From an uncultured Clostridia bacterium (GTDB taxonomy: Bacteria > Bacillota > Clostridia > UMGS1883 > UMGS1540): a stretch of 64,000 nt of DNA. The notes under the pieces were generated by a model, which made no database searches, was not told the DNA's origin, and worked only from the letters and a program-made list of their open reading frames with translations. The translations under genes and the position numbers were made by a program. The stretch covers positions 57,970 through 121,969 of the forward strand of contig CALCLY010000025.1 of assembly GCA_937966555.1 (NCBI GenBank), in the 5' to 3' direction. Positions 5,240 to 61,511 of this stretch are shown in pieces; position 1 is the stretch's first letter, and every line of letters begins with the position of its first letter.

Positions 5240-6301
5240 GTGGCAAACGAATATGCAAATTATATTCAGGTAATAAAGGTCATCGGTGTAGGCGGCGGCG
5301 GTTCAAATGCTGTTAACAGAATGGTAGACGCACAGGTAGAAGGCGTTGAATTTGTTGTTGTTAATACGGACAAGCAGGCTTTGGAGCTTTCCAAGGCAAA
5401 AACAAAAATTCAGATAGGCGAAAAAATCACAAGGGGTATGGGCGCAGGAGCAAATCCCGAGGTTGGAAGAAAAGCTGCGGAAGAAAGCCGCGGCGAAATA
5501 GAAAAAGCTGTTAAGGATGCCAATATGGTTTTCGTAACGGCAGGCATGGGCGGCGGTACAGGTACCGGCGCGGCTCCCGTTGTTGCTGATATTGCAAAAC
5601 AGATGGGAATACTTACAGTAGGTATAGTAACAAAGCCGTTTGCTTTTGAGGGCAGACGCCGTATGACACAGGCGGAATCCGGTATATCCGCACTTACGGA
5701 GTGTGTTGATACAATAATCGTAATCCCCAATGACAGACTTCTTACAATAAGCAGTGCAAAAACACTCTTTACGGAAGCATTTAAAATGGCGGACGAAAGT
5801 CTTCGCCAGGGTGTTCAGGGTGTATCCGACCTGATTTACAGACCGGGCACAATAAACGTTGACTTTGCAGACGTTACGTCCATCATGAAAGACGCCGGTC
5901 TTGCTCATATGGGCATAGGCCGTGCGAAGGGTGACAACAGAGCTGAAGAGGCTGCAAGAATAGCAATCGAAAGCCCGCTTCTTGAAACATCTATAGACGG
6001 TGCTACGGGTGTTCTTATAAACATTACGGGCGGCCCCGATCTGACGCTGTTTGAAATAAACTCCGCAACAACTCTTATACAAAACTGTGCGGACGCGAAT
6101 GCAAACATCATATTCGGTACGGCTATTGACAACAAGATGGAAGATGAAATTTCCGTAACTGTTATTGCAACGGGTTTCCCGAGCGGCAATAAGCAGAAGG
6201 ATATTGATGTTGATACAAACATGATAAATAAAAACTCAAACTTTAATGATGAGGATTTAACCCTTCCCGGTTTCCTCAAAAAATCAAGTTTTGATTTTTA
6301 A
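5240..6301 (+). CDS. ftsZ: Cell division GTPase FtsZ (GTG start)
   Basis: Tubulin signature GGGTGTG plus the [14 protein letters not shown]-terminus. RBS GAAGGAGG 6 nt upstream of the GTG. Confidence 0.95.
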
Positions 6302-20258: not shown

Positions 20259-20513
20259 AAGTAAAAGGGGATGTTAAAAAGCTCCGGAACGCAAGAAAAG
20301 GGGAAAATCAAATATCACGGAATATGCAAATGATGCAGTTAGATTTAATTAGAGGCAGAAAAATCAAAAAAATGATTTTTCAAAAAATATACCTTTTCTT
20401 GCTATCAGCAAACTTCACCTCTCGACGTACCTATGTACGCCTTCGGGTAACCCAAAACAAAAGTTTTGGCTCAGTTTGCCGATTCCAAAGCTTTTTTCCT
20501 ATCCCCTTGAAAA

Positions 20514-20545
20514 AATGGGCTTTTTAAAAAGCCCCGATTTTATAA
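20514..20545 (-). terminator. Terminator for the RpiR gene (GGGCTTTTTAAAAAGCCC palindrome followed by ATTTTTTC on the minus strand)
   Basis: Palindrome read directly, with a U-tract on the minus strand. Confidence 0.6.
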
Positions 20546-55597: not shown

Positions 55598-56089
55598 ATG
55601 CCTCATTTGAATGATGCTTCCGCAGCAAAAATATCTGAAATTTGCGACAGATACACAGCGGAAAAAACGCCTCTAATGATGATCCTCAGCGATATCCAGA
55701 ACGAATACGGTTATATTCCTCTGGAGGCGCAGGAGCTTGTTTCGGAAAAAACGGGTATTTCCGTTGCCGAAATATACGGGGTGGTTACTTTTTACTCATT
55801 TTTCTCTTTACAGCCAAAAGGGAAATATATTATAGGCTGCTGTCTCGGTACGGCATGCTATGTTAAGGGCGCGCAGCATATTATCGATAAGTTTTCCGAG
55901 GTTTTGGGCGTTAAACCCGGTGAAACGACAGAAGACGGTATGTTTACCATCGATGCGTTAAGATGTATCGGCGCCTGCGGTATTGCTCCGGCAGTATCCA
56001 TTAACGGAAAGGTATATCCCAAGGTTTCGGTTGACCAGGTTCCCGAAATTATCGAAGAATATCGTAATATGGAGGGTGCGGGTCAATGA
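55598..56089 (+). CDS. hydC: [FeFe]-hydrogenase subunit HydC (NuoE-like thioredoxin-fold [2Fe-2S] protein)
   Basis: Motifs CLGTACYVKGA and CIGACGIAPAVSING. 163 aa. RBS GGAAGGAGG. Confidence 0.8.
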   Translation: MPHLNDASAAKISEICDRYTAEKTPLMMILSDIQNEYGYIPLEAQELVSEKTGISVAEIYGVVTFYSFFSLQPKGKYIIGCCLGTACYVKGAQHIIDKFSEVLGVKPGETTEDGMFTIDALRCIGACGIAPAVSINGKVYPKVSVDQVPEIIEEYRNMEGAGQ

Positions 56090-57951
56090 TTAAAAACTTT
56101 GATGAATTAAATTCAAAAATTTGTGATTGCTCCAAAAGCTTTGACGCCAAAATGGTGGGAGAAAACGGTAAGCGCGCAATACTTCTTTGCGGCGGTACGG
56201 GATGTCTTTCGTCAAATTCGGCCGAAATTCAGGAGAAATTTTCCGAGCTTGTAAAAGAACATAAAATGGAGGACAAGGTTTCGGTTAACAAAGTCGGCTG
56301 TTTCGGCTTCTGCTCACAGGGACCTTTTGTAAAGATTTATCCCGAAGACACGCTTTACCGTCTTGTCTGTCTTGACGATGTTGAAGAAATTTTCGAAAAA
56401 GACATAATAAACCATGAGGTTGTTGAAAGACTTTTGTATGTTGACCCTGCAACAAAAGAGCATGTTACAAAGCAGGATGATATAAACTTCTATAAAAAGC
56501 AGGTGCGTGTTGCTTTGCACGGCTGCGGTCAGATAAACCCCGAGGATATCGAAGAGGCTTTGGGCTTTGACGCATTTAAGGGTCTTATAAAAGCTCTTTC
56601 AATGTCTCGCGAGGACGTTATAAAAGAGGTTTTGGATTCCGGACTTCGCGGCAGAGGAGGAGGCGGCTTCCCAACGGGCAGAAAATGGCAGTTTGCGTTT
56701 GCTCAGCCCGACGGTGAGAAATATGTTGTCTGTAACGGCGACGAGGGTGACCCCGGTGCTTTTATGGACAGGTCAATCCTCGAAGGCAACCCTCTTGCCG
56801 TTATAGAAGGCATGATGATTGCCGGTTACGCAATAGGCGCACAAAACGGTTATTTTTACGTTCGTGCGGAATATCCCATTGCCGTTAACAGACTTAAAAT
56901 AGCTATAAAGCAGGCTGAAGAGCTTGGACTTTTGGGAGAAAACATTTTGGGCACGGGTTTCTCGTTCCGCGTTCATATAAGACTCGGCGCCGGCGCATTC
57001 GTGTGCGGTGAGGAAACGGCTCTTCTGAATTCCATAGAGGGTCAGAGAGGTATGCCGCGTCCCCGTCCGCCGTTCCCGGCAGTTAAGGGTCTGTGGCAGA
57101 GCCCGACTATAGTAAATAACGTTGAAACGCTTGCAACCGTTCCCTATATATTAAGAGAGGGCGCCGCAAAGTTTGCGGAATACGGCACGGAAAATTCCAA
57201 GGGCACCAAGGTGTTCGCCCTCGGCGGTAAAATAAACAACGTTGGTCTTGTTGAGGTTCCCATGGGCACAACGCTCCGCGAGCTTATCTATGATATCGGC
57301 GGCGGAATCCCCGAAGGAAAGAAATTCAAGGCTATACAGACGGGCGGTCCCTCCGGCGGCTGTTTGACAGAGAAGGATCTCGACACGCCCATAGACTTCA
57401 ACAGTCTCGTTGCAAAAGGCTCAATGATGGGCTCCGGCGGCGCAATTGTTATGGACGAGGATAACTGTATGGTTGACGTTGCAAAATTCTATATGGAATT
57501 TATCTGCGACGAGTCCTGCGGTAAGTGCTCACCCTGCCGTATCGGTACAAAGAGAATGCTCGAGCTTCTCACAAAGATAACCGAGGGTAAGGCTGATATG
57601 GAAGATTTAAACCAGCTTGAAGAGCTTGCCGCTACAATTAAAAACGGCGCTTTGTGCGCTCTGGGGCAGACGGCGGCAAACCCCGTTACGTCAACCCTTA
57701 CTCATTTCAGAGATGAATACATAGCTCATATCGTTGACAAGAACTGTCCCGCACATGTTTGCAAGAGACTTACAAGCTACAGCATTGACCCCGACAAGTG
57801 TAAAAAATGCAGTCTCTGTGCAAGACAGTGTCCCGTTGATGCTATTTCGGGCGTTGTCGGCAAGGAACCGTTCGTAATCGACCGGAGCAAGTGTATAAAG
57901 TGCGGAATGTGTATGTCTTCCTGCAAATTCGGCGCTGTTATAAAGAAATAA
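56086..57951 (+). CDS. hydB: [FeFe]-hydrogenase subunit HydB (NuoF-like NAD(P)H/FMN-binding subunit with N-terminal [2Fe-2S] and C-terminal 2x[4Fe-4S])
   Basis: The GRGGGGFPTGRKW FMN/NADH motif, a SLBB region, the 4Fe-4S C-X2-C-X2-C-X3-C motifs CKKCSLCARQCP and CIKCGMCMSSC, and an N-terminal thioredoxin-like Cys pattern. Confidence 0.85.
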   Translation: MIKNFDELNSKICDCSKSFDAKMVGENGKRAILLCGGTGCLSSNSAEIQEKFSELVKEHKMEDKVSVNKVGCFGFCSQGPFVKIYPEDTLYRLVCLDDVEEIFEKDIINHEVVERLLYVDPATKEHVTKQDDINFYKKQVRVALHGCGQINPEDIEEALGFDAFKGLIKALSMSREDVIKEVLDSGLRGRGGGGFPTGRKWQFAFAQPDGEKYVVCNGDEGDPGAFMDRSILEGNPLAVIEGMMIAGYAIGAQNGYFYVRAEYPIAVNRLKIAIKQAEELGLLGENILGTGFSFRVHIRLGAGAFVCGEETALLNSIEGQRGMPRPRPPFPAVKGLWQSPTIVNNVETLATVPYILREGAAKFAEYGTENSKGTKVFALGGKINNVGLVEVPMGTTLRELIYDIGGGIPEGKKFKAIQTGGPSGGCLTEKDLDTPIDFNSLVAKGSMMGSGGAIVMDEDNCMVDVAKFYMEFICDESCGKCSPCRIGTKRMLELLTKITEGKADMEDLNQLEELAATIKNGALCALGQTAANPVTSTLTHFRDEYIAHIVDKNCPAHVCKRLTSYSIDPDKCKKCSLCARQCPVDAISGVVGKEPFVIDRSKCIKCGMCMSSCKFGAVIKK

Positions 57952-57965
57952 GGGAGGGAAATTAA

Positions 57966-59732
57966 GTGTCAGAAATTAATATTAAAATAGAAGGCGTTTC
58001 CTACAAAGTTGAGGAGGGGCTTACAATACTTGAGGCCGCCAAAAAGTGCGGTTATGAAATTCCGTCCCTTTGTGCATACAATCACGGTGAATGTTCAAGA
58101 GGTTCCTGCCGCGTATGTCTCGTTGAGGCAACCGGGGCAAGAGGTCTTGTAGCATCCTGTGTGTATCCCGTAAGCGAAGGAATGGAAATCACAATTTCGT
58201 CGCCCAAGGCGGTTGCGGCAAGGCGTGCATCTGTTGAGCTGCTTCTTTCAAACCACTCGACAGACTGTCAGCAGTGCGATAAAAACGAATACTGCGAGCT
58301 TTTGCACGTTGCGCGCATTACGGGCGCGAGAGAGGGTATGTTTGAGGGAGAAAAAACCCCGACAACCTTGGACGAGCTTACGCCGTCCATCGTTCGCGAT
58401 ACGTCAAAATGTATTCTCTGCGGAAGATGTATCGAAAGATGTAAAAATGCTCACGGAAAAGGTATTTTGGGATTTGAGAACCGCGGCTTTGCAACAATTG
58501 TTGCACCTGCCGAAAACAGATCCTTTGCAAATTCGCCGTGTATACTCTGCGGTCAGTGCACAAGCGTCTGTCCTACGGGCGCATTGATGGAAAAGTCCGA
58601 AATACATAAAATTGACGAGGCGAAAAGCCGCGGTAAATTCATAGTTGTTCAGACGGCTCCTGCGGTTCGTGCGGCGCTTGGCGAGGAATTCGGAATGAAA
58701 ATAGGCACGCCCGTTACCGGAAAAATGGTTGCGGCGCTTCGCCGTCTTGGTTTCGACAAGGTTTACGATACCGATTTTGCCGCTGACCTCACAATTATGG
58801 AGGAGGCAACCGAGCTTCTCGGAAGAATAACAAACGGCGGAGTTCTTCCGATGATAACATCGTGCTCCCCCGGCTGGATAAACTACGCGGAGTATAATTA
58901 TTCCGATTTGCTTCCGCATCTTTCAAGCTGCAAATCGCCTCATGAGATGTTCGGCGCAATAGTTAAGTCCTACTATGCCGAGAAAAACGGCATTGATCCG
59001 GCTGATATTTTTGTTGTTTCAATTATGCCCTGTACGGCAAAGAAATTTGAAAAGGAAAGAGAACAGCTTAAAACAAACGGATTTATGGACGTTGACGCTG
59101 TCTTAACAACACGTGAGCTTGCAAAGCTTATAAAGCGTTCAGGCATAAACTTCAAAAAGCTTCCGGATGAGGAGTTTGACGCTGATTTGCTCGGCGATTA
59201 CACCGGAGCCGGCGTTATCTTCGGCGTTACCGGCGGCGTTATGGAGGCTGCATTGAGAACGGCTTATCACGCGCTCACAGGTAAAGAGCATGAGCTTATT
59301 AAGTTTGAAGCTGTTCGCGGTTTTGACGGAATCCGTGAAGCAAGCCTTGATATAAACGGCACCATTATAAATGTTGCTGTGGCACACGGCATGAAAAACG
59401 CAAAGGTTTTGCTTGACGATATAAGAGCGGGCAAGTCAAAATATCACTTTATCGAGATAATGGGCTGCCCCGGCGGATGTATTGCGGGCGGCGGTCAGCC
59501 GTATGTGAAACCGTGCTTTTTGCCCGATGAGGATATTGATATTCTCGATACGTATAAGGAAAAGAGAGCAGCGGCGCTTTATTCCGAGGACGAAAGAAAC
59601 GCTGTGCGTCAGTCTCACAACAATATGCAGGTTAAGGCGCTTTATGATGAGTTTTTGGGAGAACCTAATTCGCATAAGGCTCATGAGCTTTTGCATACGA
59701 CATATGCGGCGCGTGAGGGCTTTAACGACTGA
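57966..59732 (+). CDS. hydA: [FeFe]-hydrogenase catalytic subunit HydA (M3 type: 2Fe-2S, His-ligated 4Fe-4S, 2x4Fe-4S, H-cluster), GTG start
   Basis: H-cluster motifs L2 MPCTAKKFE and L3 EIMGCPGGCIAGGGQP. L1 reads TSCSPGW, where the canonical form is TSCCPxW. Also the N-terminal ferredoxin-type Cys patterns. Confidence 0.85.
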   Translation: MSEINIKIEGVSYKVEEGLTILEAAKKCGYEIPSLCAYNHGECSRGSCRVCLVEATGARGLVASCVYPVSEGMEITISSPKAVAARRASVELLLSNHSTDCQQCDKNEYCELLHVARITGAREGMFEGEKTPTTLDELTPSIVRDTSKCILCGRCIERCKNAHGKGILGFENRGFATIVAPAENRSFANSPCILCGQCTSVCPTGALMEKSEIHKIDEAKSRGKFIVVQTAPAVRAALGEEFGMKIGTPVTGKMVAALRRLGFDKVYDTDFAADLTIMEEATELLGRITNGGVLPMITSCSPGWINYAEYNYSDLLPHLSSCKSPHEMFGAIVKSYYAEKNGIDPADIFVVSIMPCTAKKFEKEREQLKTNGFMDVDAVLTTRELAKLIKRSGINFKKLPDEEFDADLLGDYTGAGVIFGVTGGVMEAALRTAYHALTGKEHELIKFEAVRGFDGIREASLDINGTIINVAVAHGMKNAKVLLDDIRAGKSKYHFIEIMGCPGGCIAGGGQPYVKPCFLPDEDIDILDTYKEKRAAALYSEDERNAVRQSHNNMQVKALYDEFLGEPNSHKAHELLHTTYAAREGFND

Positions 59733-59745
59733 TATTTGCTTTTAA

Positions 59746-60075
59746 AAAAACAAAGCTGTTTAAAAAGCCACAACCCGATAAGGAAGTATTGGTTTTGAAA
59801 GCCGTTCTTTAAGTTTATACTTCGTAAACAGGCGGTCGTATACGTCAGTATTACGACCGCCTGTTTTCTTGTCTAAAGCTTAAACTCCGACCTTCAAAAC
59901 TGCTCTGCACCCTGTAAACAATATTTTTTGATGAAGTTCAAGGCAAAAAAGCGAGTAATCCTGTCGGATTTCGAGCCTTTTTTAACGCTGAAATTCGCAA
60001 AAAAGATGTTTAGCAGGGCAATACTTCCTTGCCGGGCTGTGGCTAAAGTCAGTTGACTTTTTAAACAGCTTTTTT
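59746..60075. mobile_element. MITE-like non-coding element bounded by ~50 bp imperfect terminal inverted repeats
   Basis: Left arm AAAGCTGTTTAAAAAGCCACAACCCGATAAGGAAGTATTG (59752-59792). The right arm reverse-complements to AAAGCTGTTTAAAAAG[14 nt insert]CCACAGCCCGGCAAGGAAGTATTG (60020-60072). No ORF between the arms. Confidence 0.45.
59826..59870 (+). terminator. Terminator after hydA (AAACAGGCGGTCGTA ... TACGACCGCCTGTTT + TCTTG), lying inside the MITE-like element
   Basis: 15 bp inverted repeat with a T-rich tail. Confidence 0.6.
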
Positions 60076-60089
60076 TATGAGGTAAACAA

Positions 60090-60118
60090 TTGCTTTTTAA
60101 GCTGTTTGATGATATAAT
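60090..60118 (+). promoter_or_regulatory. Promoter for the M20 amidohydrolase gene (TTGCTT - 17 - TGaTATAAT)
   Basis: Hexamers read directly, immediately right of the MITE-like element. Confidence 0.45.
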
Positions 60119-60167
60119 ATATACAATATAAGAAGAATTTGAATTTTATAAGAGGTGATTGACTGAT

Positions 60168-61511
60168 ATGAACGAACGAATGAAGCATATATCGGATGCT
60201 GTTGAAAAACATTCAAAATTGATTTTGGAAGCGGAAAGACATATCTGGAAAAACCCCGAAACAGGTTATAAAGAAGAAAAAACAAGCAAATATCTTGAAG
60301 GCAAATTCAAAGAAATGGGATATAACACAACTCCTGCCGGAGATATACCCGGGTTTTGCGCAGAGCTTGATACCGGAAGAAAAGGACCGTGTGTTCTTGT
60401 TTTGGGGGAAATGGATTCGCTTATATGCGCTGAGCACCCCGAGTGCGATCCTGTTACAAAGGCCGCACATGTATGCGGACACAATGCGCAAACCGCAGCG
60501 CTTCTCGGAGTTGCGGCAGCTTTGGCGGACAGTGATATTGCAGAAAACTGGAGCGGAAAAGTGAGATTTTGCGCCGTGCCCGCCGAAGAACTTATAGAAA
60601 TCGGTTTTCGTGATACGCTTAAGGAAAAAGGAATTATAAAATATTACGGCGGTAAAACGGAGTTTTTGTACAGAGGATATTTTGATGGTGCCGATATGGC
60701 GATGATGGTGCATGCAAGGGCATGTGAGGGGTTCTATTTTAATGCGGGAAGCGTTGGCTGTCTTGCAAAAAAAATAGTATATAAAGGAAAAAGCGCACAT
60801 GCGGGCGGAGCGCCGCATGAAGGCATTAACGCTCTGTATGCCGCAAATCTCGGGCTTTCCGCTGTAAATGCGCTTCGTGAAACCTTCAGAGAATGTGACA
60901 CTATAAGATTCCACCCGATTATAACAAAAGGCGGAAGCGCGGTAAACGCAATTCCGGACGAGGTTATCGTTGAAAGCTATGTAAGAGGTATGACACTTGA
61001 CGCAATAGAACGTGAAAACAATAAAATAAACCGCGCTCTGACAGCAGCGGCGGCCGCAATGGGCGCAAATGTTGAAATTTTTGATAACCCCGGATACAGC
61101 CCGTACGTAACGGACAAAAATTTTGCTGAGGCGGCATTAAAATCCGTTTCGGGCACGCCGTATGAATACAAATTTAATTTCGGCGAAACCGAAACATCAA
61201 GTACGGATATGGGCGATTTATCAAGCGTTATGCCTACAATTCAGCCGTATGCCGGTGGTGCCGTAGGCACTCAGCACGGCAAAGATTTTTATATAAAAGA
61301 CCCTCAGACAGCTTGTGTTGACAATGCAAAGGTTCAAATAAGAATTCTTGATGAGCTTCTGTGCGGCGGCGCGGAAACCGCAATAAAAATAGCTGCCGAA
61401 GCAAAGCCGCTTTTTGCATCAAAAGAAGATTATTTCAAAAAAATAGATTCCCTCGTTCAAAGCGGAGACCGCATAAAATATGAGGACGGCAGAATTATTT
61501 TAAGAGGCTGA
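60168..61511 (+). CDS. M20D-family amidohydrolase (aminoacylase/hippurate hydrolase-like)
   Basis: HVCGHNAQTAALLGVAAAL metal-binding motif of M20D peptidases. Start taken at the ATG at 60168 after AGAGGTGA; the track lists a TTG at 60159. Confidence 0.7.
   Translation: MNERMKHISDAVEKHSKLILEAERHIWKNPETGYKEEKTSKYLEGKFKEMGYNTTPAGDIPGFCAELDTGRKGPCVLVLGEMDSLICAEHPECDPVTKAAHVCGHNAQTAALLGVAAALADSDIAENWSGKVRFCAVPAEELIEIGFRDTLKEKGIIKYYGGKTEFLYRGYFDGADMAMMVHARACEGFYFNAGSVGCLAKKIVYKGKSAHAGGAPHEGINALYAANLGLSAVNALRETFRECDTIRFHPIITKGGSAVNAIPDEVIVESYVRGMTLDAIERENNKINRALTAAAAAMGANVEIFDNPGYSPYVTDKNFAEAALKSVSGTPYEYKFNFGETETSSTDMGDLSSVMPTIQPYAGGAVGTQHGKDFYIKDPQTACVDNAKVQIRILDELLCGGAETAIKIAAEAKPLFASKEDYFKKIDSLVQSGDRIKYEDGRIILRG

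Follow-up and report, generated by a model that had tools for sequence, protein, structure and literature searches.

A MITE-type palindromic element inside the hydA terminator hairpin of an uncultured gut Clostridia bacterium

What kind of DNA separates hydA, the last gene of a [FeFe]-hydrogenase operon, from the M20 peptidase gene that follows it in an uncultured Clostridia bacterium? The question is raised by a stretch of 64,000 nt of contig CALCLY010000025.1 (the window), in which the spacer between both genes contains long inverted repeats and a strong hairpin. A first-pass annotation of this spacer had proposed a mobile, non-coding element resembling a MITE (miniature inverted-repeat transposable element), and this was borne out by dispersed copies, by terminal inverted repeats (TIRs), by a target-site duplication (TSD) and by the presence or absence of the element at hydA. 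Thus, positions 59766-60044 of the window are very likely one copy of a non-autonomous DNA transposon of the MITE type that sits inside a pre-existing hydA terminator hairpin. The repeat is of genuine MITE type and represents a family, new and not annotated before, of uncultured Clostridia from the human gut. The family stands out for its near-exclusive polar insertion into terminator-like hairpins with a 2-bp TSD, and for a conserved, covarying internal hairpin followed by a T-run.

RESULTS

Filled and empty hydA alleles

To compare alleles with and without the element, contigs encoding exactly the 588-aa HydA of the window were collected and their spacers were aligned. The spacer between hydA and the M20 gene measured 436 nt in the window and in loci L001, L003, L005 and L006, and 172 nt in L002, L004, L007 and L009. 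The comparison of the hydA 3' region among related strains, which had been suggested with the first-pass annotation, therefore revealed the element in some strains and its absence from others.

The short allele keeps AAAGCTGTTTAAAAAG-TCGAATATGG-CTTTTTAAACAGCTTTTTTT, a plain hairpin with a T-run located 20-odd nt past the stop codon in the alignment. In all four empty alleles the 5' arm pairs with CTTTTTAAACAGCTTT over a 10-nt loop, and the T-run follows. Since it is kept as a plain hairpin in the short allele, the AAAGCTGTTTAAAAAG hairpin with its T-run is the native hydA terminator. Rebuilding the empty site in silico at hydA yielded a perfect hairpin of -28.6 kcal/mol. The earlier proposal that the insertion had supplied the terminator of the hydrogenase operon was thus not sustained, given that the empty allele already carries a strong hairpin and a T-run.

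Boundaries and internal organization

Comparison with the other copies set the ends of the element at AG-CCACA...TGTGG-CT. The features of the window copy are as follows.

59766-60044, + strand: mobile element, 279 nt, without an open reading frame (ORF) of note; absent from empty alleles, with copies at unrelated loci
Element end sequences: AGCCACARCCCG ... CGGGYTGTGGCT
59766-59791, + strand: left TIR, AGCCACAACCCGATAAGGAAGTATTG; inverted repeat, AG-CCACA kept in all copies
60019-60044, + strand: right TIR, CAATACTTCCTTGCCGGGCTGTGGCT; inverted repeat, TGTGG-CT kept in all copies
59764-59765, no strand: left TSD copy, AA, the last two bases of the native 5' arm
60045-60046, no strand: right TSD copy, AA
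59752-59765, + strand: 5' arm of the native hydA terminator, AAAGCTGTTTAAAA; host DNA, also in empty alleles
60047-60076, + strand: remainder of the native terminator, with stem top AG, loop TCAGTTGA (60049-60056), 3' arm CTTTTTAAACAGCTTT (60057-60072) and T-run to 60076
59792-59900, + strand: Module 1, an imperfect palindrome of ~109 nt with arms 59792-59816 and 59876-59900; matches itself in reverse orientation by blastn over 109 nt (75%)
59826-59870, + strand: central hairpin plus TTTTCTT, with a perfect 15-bp stem (59826-59840 and 59852-59866) and an 11-nt loop
59910-60018, + strand: Module 2, an imperfect palindrome of ~109 nt with arms 59910-59930 and 59998-60018; near-invariant
59939-59988, + strand: Module 2 core, with CAAGGC, an A-run, the short hairpin AATCC-TGTC-GGATT, a T-run and AACGC

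The TIRs (AGCCACA...TGTGGCT) are 26 nt long and 88% complementary in the window copy, which amounts to three mismatches. Outside them, AAAGCTGTTTAAAAAG (59752-59767) and CTTTTTAAACAGCTTT (60057-60072) show perfect complementarity; repeat finding returned this outer inverted repeat as 59748-59770 and 60054-60076 (23 nt, 91%). The arms, mismatches and hairpin of the first-pass annotation are therefore where it had placed them, as 26-nt inner arms with three mismatches and perfect 16-nt outer arms. However, they do not add up to TIRs of ~50 bp: the perfect outer 16 bp are the native terminator stem, and the TIRs are confined to the inner 26 bp, or 28 if AG/CT is included. For its part, the 14-nt stretch found between the outer and inner arms on the right side only (CTAAAGTCAGTTGA, 60043-60056) had been described as an insertion in the right arm. 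The stretch is present as described, but it consists of the CT tip of the element, the duplicated AA, the AG of the terminator stem top and the loop.

The sole ORF within the element is a 42-aa frame starting with TTG, in agreement with the earlier view that the region is non-coding, and the strong internal hairpin recognized at 59826-59866 has a perfect 15-bp stem. Two nested inverted repeats, 59792-59816 with 59876-59900 and 59910-59930 with 59998-60018, had been missed; with them, nearly the whole insert is predicted to adopt a Y-shaped, three-way fold. Conservation was studied in an alignment (A2) of window positions 59766-60044 and 19 other copies, 20 in total, with a mean column identity of 92%. 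Module 2, corresponding to columns 146-260, is nearly invariant, and variants without part of Module 1 occur at L042 and L043.

Copy number and dispersal

The TIR pattern CCACARCCCGRYAAGGAAGTATTG was found at 38 loci in four species-representative metagenome-assembled genomes (MAGs) of uncultured Clostridia/Clostridiales (15, 12, 7 and 4 loci) and at 52 loci among human-gut metagenome contigs, while viral contigs gave none. With the window copy as the query, blastn rendered some 30 full-length copies at 85-99% identity at many unrelated loci, together with truncated copies, copies with internal deletions (L042/L043 and L089) and solo TIRs (L080/L093). After de-duplication, 49 left and 58 right flanks remained, which corresponds to ~50-60 distinct sites. 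Neither a second copy within the 64-kb window nor any copy in the phage collection was found. The element is thus neither single-copy nor conserved in position. Many matches are situated no more than 50 nt from the end of a contig, and two metagenome contigs with 99% identity to the window break off inside the element, at 59809 and 60000. Searches of the literature yielded no earlier report of MITEs from these taxa, although this does not prove that there is none.

Two derivative arrangements were noted among the copies. At L048:960-1025 and L094:1030-1095, a 62-nt form comprises only two TIRs of the right-end type, which enclose a 6-nt loop (AGCCACAGCCCGGTAAGGAAGTATTGCCCTG-TAAACA-...), and sits in a hairpin of the second target class described below; it shows a route by which the element decays to a plain hairpin. 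On the other hand, a second, unrelated repeat of ~190-275 nt, with ends CCTTGCAAATCCCGAAAG... and ...AGGCATAACGGATTCGAAC, is inserted in hairpin loops or arms of element copies at L011:5046-5240, L035 (~1400-1597, in the opposite orientation), L083 (618 onward), L073, L086 and L046:4946-5220. At least two non-coding repeat families therefore nest mutually in these genomes.

Target-site duplication and target hairpins

A search for copies and TSDs elsewhere by BLASTN, also suggested with the first-pass annotation, showed that the two base pairs next to the element agreed on both sides in 18 of the 19 full copies, being AA in 16 cases and TA in 2. In L019, the one exception, the left and right flanks derive from different hairpins, which is what recombination between copies would produce. 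When unique flanks were considered, AA was present at 44 of 49 on the left and 53 of 58 on the right. Within a single subfamily the dinucleotide changes from site to site (AA/AA in L024 and L031, TA/TA in L013 and L041), which is the pattern expected of a true duplication. Two other models were rejected, one placing the start of the element at CCACA with a 4-bp duplication of AAAG and the other placing the insertion 3' of AAAG, since both fail for class-2 targets and TA sites.

Removal of the element and one TSD copy restored perfect palindromes identical to unoccupied sites. About 14 of the 19 empty sites rebuilt in this way are strong hairpins, with AA atop the 5' arm and 1-4 nt from the loop. 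Beyond AA, the target sequences comprise at least two hairpin classes plus several non-hairpin sites. The two classes are as follows.

Target class 1: (A)nGGGGCTGTTTAAAAAG-TCAATTGA-CTTTTTAAACAGCCCC(T)n
Target class 2: (A)nGGGGCTGCGGCAAAA-TGAAATTTCA-TTTTGCCGCAGCCCC(T)n

Unoccupied class-1 hairpins are present at L032:2227-2258, L036:3025-3040, L036:7136-7151 and L046:5291-5322. The unoccupied hairpins are identical in their upper stem and in their loop, CTGTTTAAAAAG-TCAATTGA-CTTTTTAAACAG, and differ in their G+C-rich bases; these terminator-like hairpins look like a repeat family of their own, similar to REP (repetitive extragenic palindromic) sequences. In the window, the only hairpin of the target classes is the occupied hydA terminator.

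Insertion is strongly polar. The right (CT) end points toward the loop in all but two or three of ~55 sites (~95% fixed polarity). The 3' end of a gene faces the element at 30 of 32 distinct sites, with 11 convergent pairs, ~18 tandem contexts and 2 divergent ones. Of the tandem cases, 4-8 have the element in the same direction as the genes and 7-10 in the opposite one. Orientation relative to genes is thus mixed and follows the hairpin arm, not transcription, and the idea that orientation is selected by terminator polarity was discarded on the same grounds.

Recurrent palindromic targets, a fixed orientation and mostly AA flanks would also suit a transposase-less module of the IS110/IS1111 type, moved by a DEDD recombinase with a bridge or seek RNA at REP-like targets; the shared dinucleotide would then be the recombination core. 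There is a precedent in ISPpu9, an IS110-family insertion sequence (IS) that targets REP palindromes, has AG at both ends and is accompanied by a transposase-less module, ssr9, that forms minicircles (PMC12288879). The highly structured nature of the ~280-nt element, whose minus strand folds better, is in line with such a module. However, the 26-nt TIRs run to the very tips, unlike IS110-type ends, whose inverted repeats, where present, are short and subterminal, and a fixed donor core does not predict AA/AA and TA/TA within one subfamily, nor does it fit targets that outside AA fall into two or more classes and non-hairpin sites. Nearly every base is paired, with no large internal loops to serve as guides, and no DEDD gene was seen near the copies. 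An IS110-type module is accordingly an improbable explanation, and the MITE reading is retained.

Folding and covariation

The plus strand of a 376-nt region containing the element folded at -141.8 kcal/mol, compared with -83.7 ± 5.4 for shuffled sequences (z -10.7), and the minus strand at -150.4 kcal/mol (z -13.3); none of 100 shuffles folded as well. Among the 20 copies of A2, the stem of the central hairpin differs by subfamily (GCGGTCGTA, GCAGCCGTA, GACACCGTA and TACACCGTA) yet stays paired, with 99.0% of cells in the paired state. Double-sided changes amounted to 51 cells in this stem versus 20.1 ± 3.5 after shuffling (a value reached in 0 of 500 shuffles), and the covariation score was 0.085 against 0.013-0.032 for slid controls. 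Seven of the eight covarying pairs of the whole fold belong to the central hairpin helix. The free energy of this hairpin is -28.6 kcal/mol in the window and ranges from -9 to -30 over all 20 copies, with the T-run retained.

So stable a fold, with covariation in one helix and located directly after hydA, could be that of a resident structured non-coding RNA gene or of a regulatory structure in the 3' untranslated region (UTR) of the hydrogenase operon. Nevertheless, the structure is absent in strains with identical HydA and occurs at ~50-60 unrelated sites beside unrelated genes, with TIRs and TSDs, in an orientation unrelated to neighboring transcription. Rfam 15 at gathering thresholds gave no match in the 64-kb window on either strand, tRNA, riboswitch, leader and small RNA families included, and when the threshold was relaxed to E values of up to 10 in 59600-60250, the hits obtained were at chance level (E 0.1-10) and fell far short of the gathering scores. 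The probability of a resident RNA is close to nil, and as the primary explanation it is excluded by copy number, polymorphism and context.

Predicted consequences for hydA termination

At hydA, the insertion splits the native terminator stem at the top of its 5' arm. A hydA transcript would then pass through the left half-stem and the left TIR before reaching the central hairpin and U-run at 59826-59870, where, judging by the sequence, hydA transcripts now probably end. Read-through RNA could re-close the long-range host stem before the T-run (60070-60076) as a back-up. The element thus appears to have interrupted an existing terminator and to have brought a substitute for it, and the retained, covarying internal hairpin probably makes insertion into terminators tolerable. 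Filled and empty strains should differ by ~100-280 nt in the hydA 3'-UTR, which could affect mRNA stability.

Neighboring features of the locus

The element is flanked by the following features.

55598-59732, + strand: HydC/HydB/HydA-type [FeFe]-hydrogenase operon, the 5' neighbor of the element
60168-61511, + strand: M20 peptidase gene, the 3' neighbor of the element
60090-60118, + strand: probable M20 promoter (TTGCTT, 17 nt, TGaTATAAT), as read from the sequence; outside the element and the same in empty alleles

The first-pass annotation had linked the insertion to the promoter of the next gene, lying immediately downstream. This link was not upheld, as the downstream promoter region is outside the element and identical in empty alleles. 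The putative M20 promoter was not called by a consensus scan, its -35 hexamer matching at 3 of 6 positions. A partial echo of the repeat reported at 60091-60106 does exist; it is weak (81%) and also occurs in alleles without the element, which makes it host sequence. Separately, the motif TTTTTCAAGGGGATAGGA or its reverse complement was seen directly beside terminator hairpins at window 20495-20545, L040:1748-1775, L032:2259-2285 and in the flank of L085, and may be a common ribosome-binding site or leader context of the adjacent gene.

DISCUSSION

Points that weigh against the MITE reading

Several observations do not sit easily with one copy of a non-autonomous transposon in the hydA terminator. 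Two of them concern the locus itself. The loop of the empty alleles is TCGAATATGG, versus TCAGTTGA or TCAATTGG in the rebuilt pre-insertion site, and a 14-nt indel just 5' of the terminator stem distinguishes filled from empty alleles. This indel appears as AAAACA in the window (59735-59752) versus TTCAGAAAATCAGGAAAGCG in L002:4780-4815; despite the indel and the loop change, filled and empty alleles have the same hydA 3' end and the same M20 promoter. Moreover, the filled alleles show two downstream backgrounds of single-nucleotide polymorphisms, one of which is also found in empty alleles. Therefore, either no single clean event separates the two states or recombination has shuffled them.

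Other points concern the role assigned to the central hairpin. Its terminator activity is predicted from its form, which is that of an intrinsic terminator, and a consensus terminator scan does not call it, the loop limit of the scan being 8 nt and the loop here 11 nt. As for the element in general, its interior is self-complementary almost throughout, and its conservation exceeds what would be expected of a passive deletion derivative.

A further difficulty is strand asymmetry. Stem mismatches are biased to A.C on the plus strand (G.U on the minus strand), with 9 recurrent positions versus 2 of the opposite kind (G.T on the plus strand). Similarly, most copies have a more stable fold on the minus strand, the alifold energies being -104.5 versus -88.1 and the mean minimum free energies of the copies in A2 -122.4 versus -110.6. 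The wobble bias hints that one strand, as DNA or RNA, is under selection, something that a plain double-strand DDE model does not predict.

It is only this asymmetry that keeps alive the alternative of movement as single-stranded DNA by a Y1/HUH enzyme, in the manner of an IS200/IS605-type PATE or a REP/RAYT-like element. Such an element would use a one-strand hairpin fold as the substrate and hairpin loops of the lagging-strand template as the target. The extreme single-strand folding, the compensatory changes in one hairpin, the insertion in or beside hairpin loops and the occurrence of other repeats inside the element's own loops would all be accommodated. Nonetheless, systems of this kind, whose insertions lie 3' of a set tetra- or pentanucleotide, are devoid of TIRs and TSDs, and the element has both. 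In addition, the 2-bp TSD model restores the palindromes of unoccupied sites, whereas insertion 3' of AAAG does not for class 2, and no conserved tetranucleotide is available as a guide at both ends. Single-strand movement by a Y1/HUH enzyme is, in our opinion, highly improbable.

Finally, no autonomous parent or transposase was found in ~700 kb around ~90 copies (~8 kb around each), in the 64-kb window or in the plasmid and phage collections. Since this search gave neither, mobilization in trans and the transposase family are only inferred. The alternative wording of the first-pass annotation, a decayed IS, had no support either, neither a transposase remnant nor a parent having been found in this search.

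Several candidates for the parent were considered and rejected. Left-end partials (L011, L019, L025, L030, L035, L039 and L047) are truncated or interrupted by the unrelated ~190-nt repeat, and the ORFs of 467 aa and 299 aa beside left-end partials encode orthologous secreted proteins without Pfam matches, not transposases. Right-end partials (L052/L068, L059/L082 and L080/L093) adjoin host genes for a glycerate kinase, a radical SAM protein, a ThiF protein and a histidine kinase. The loci examined contained no TIR pairs more than 300 nt apart and no long intra-MAG repeats. None of seven candidate ORFs of the window (five lone or opposite-strand, two same-strand) matched a transposase family; they encode regulators, a sigma factor, a GGDEF protein or a heparinase-like protein or have no Pfam match. 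At L008:4960-5700, in a strain that also encodes this HydA, DNA for the N terminus of an ISL3-family transposase (Zn-ribbon and helix-turn-helix, 162 aa) interrupts the element, lying in the loop of the second of its inner hairpins (approximately window 59965). This fragment is inserted into the element and has different downstream DNA, and it was discarded as a parent. The downstream gene at L008 is GH127 instead of M20, owing to either a rearrangement or a chimeric assembly.

Proposed mechanism of insertion

The mechanism, by analogy, appears to resemble IS30-type insertion most. A transposase provided by a parent element and acting in trans would cut the target with a 2-bp stagger. The palindromic hairpin would guide target choice, and the arm next to the left end would mimic the right tip of the element with a 2-bp spacer. 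In agreement with this, the target arm beside the left end (GGGGCTG[T/C]GGC[A/T]AA) resembles the right tip CGGGCTGTGGCT plus a 2-bp spacer, in register. The in-register match averaged 5.24 of 12 positions, against 1.5-3.6 for other offsets and 3.28 ± 0.20 for shuffles, a statistic that is inflated because the flanks belong to a related hairpin family and are not independent samples. Mimicry of the right tip by the target arm, guiding recognition, is thus suggestive.

At L044:84-129 and at L046:4680-4700 and 5253-5270, a host flank, GGCTGTGGCT, is identical to the right tip of the element, from which it is parted by an A-run and loop or by AA. These flanks represent either double occupancy, what is left of an earlier copy or a target that mimics the end of the element.

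A bolder version, which we regard as unlikely, is a dedicated terminator-homing system. In such a system the enzyme would read a folded single strand or an end-mimicking hairpin instead of plain duplex, insertion into terminator hairpins of a REP-like family would have fixed polarity, and replacement terminator hairpins would be kept by selection. If so, repeated rounds would build nested palindromes, namely, the host stem, the TIR stem, the module arms and the inner hairpin, and would explain the landing of other repeats in the loops of the element. The G.U strand bias and the Module 2 core, which recurs across genera (see below), would in that case be the mark of a functional intermediate made of single-stranded DNA or RNA.

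Apart from the mechanism, the identification of this family has practical consequences. The feature after hydA should be annotated as a mobile repeat and not as an operon-specific regulatory RNA, and the perfect outer repeat should be annotated as the gene's own terminator. In the assembly of gut Clostridia the repeat breaks contigs, including two from the hydA locus. The ~50-60 sites constitute a natural experiment on the tolerance of insertions into terminators. If the transposase is found, the choice of targets by hairpin or end mimicry with a 2-bp duplication will be directly testable.

Comparison with known systems

Bacterial MITEs, including Correia/NEMIS, RUP, Nezha and Chunjie, have been reviewed (PMC10969869, PMC3184786). 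The element resembles them in being shorter than 300 bp, non-coding, multi-copy and intergenic, with TIRs and a short TSD, and also in its very stable predicted stem-loop fold, its nested insertions and its presence or absence between strains. It differs from them in that no parent IS with matching ends was found for it, in its interior, where two ordered palindromic modules take the place of a simple spacer, and in an insertion almost confined to one position in terminator-like hairpins. Unlike the TA of IS630-related MITEs, its 2-bp TSD is mostly AA.

Regarding known transposition systems, IS30 attacks positions 2 bp apart, giving 2-bp repeats, at nearly palindromic hot spots or next to its own inverted repeats, and forms exclusively IRL-IRR (left-right inverted repeat) junctions (PMC9333248). 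The element shares with this copy-out-paste-in system the 2-bp TSD; its palindromic hairpin targets, its ~95% fixed polarity and the apparent placement of its left end beside a right-end-like sequence with a 2-bp spacer would correspond to the near-palindromic or end-like targets and the strict orientation of IS30. The inverted repeats of IS30 are ~26 bp long. Members of the IS30 family have target duplications of 2-3 bp and inverted repeats of ~20-30 bp, ranges that include the 2-bp TSD and the 26-nt TIRs of the element, and their DDE transposase, with N-terminal helix-turn-helix domains, is encoded between these repeats. The resemblance is functional only, no IS30-type transposase being linked to the element and no similarity of the ends being claimed.

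REP hairpins are known IS targets (PMC1525189), and the elements that use them include IS1397, ISKpn1, ISPsy8, ISPa11 and ISPpu9/10 (PMC1525189, PMC12288879). Like these, the element selects repeated palindromic hairpins outside genes, where the position and the orientation of the insertion are both fixed. REP-targeting ISs are, however, autonomous members of the IS3 or IS110 families in Proteobacteria, whereas the element is non-autonomous, belongs to Clostridia and has TIRs and a 2-bp TSD. Its target hairpins, unlike REPs, resemble intrinsic terminators flanked by an A-run and a T-run.

[quoted passage not shown] Compared by description, these repeats differ from the element in size and TSD, with no sequence relationship evident, and the literature examined does not describe them as inserting into the stems of terminators.

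The only part of the element that matched annotated collections was the Module 2 core, which aligned with an Anaerotruncus colihominis plasmid (84.6% over 52 nt). The match belongs to a palindromic repeat that recurs in Subdoligranulum variabile at ~70% identity, as listed below.

L049:3940-4110, plasmid NZ_CP094683: Anaerotruncus colihominis palindromic repeat, ~170 nt, intergenic, TA-flanked, unannotated
L102:2501-2667 and L103:2501-2663: Subdoligranulum variabile palindromic repeats, ~170 nt, intergenic, TA-flanked, unannotated

These repeats share with the element the whole layout of the core, that is, CAAGGC, an A-run, a 7-bp hairpin, a T-run and AACGC, and the hairpin shows one compensatory pair between genera (GGAATCC/GGATTCC versus GGAATAC/GTATTCC). 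They consist of a single module, and their outer arms, GGGCTTGTTTGAAAA and TTTTCAAACAGCCCC, are like class-1 target hairpins and not like the TIRs of the element. The target hairpins themselves may thus be small members of a related repeat superfamily, and the shared core together with the target-like outer arms points to a broader superfamily of palindromic, modular repeats in Oscillospiraceae.

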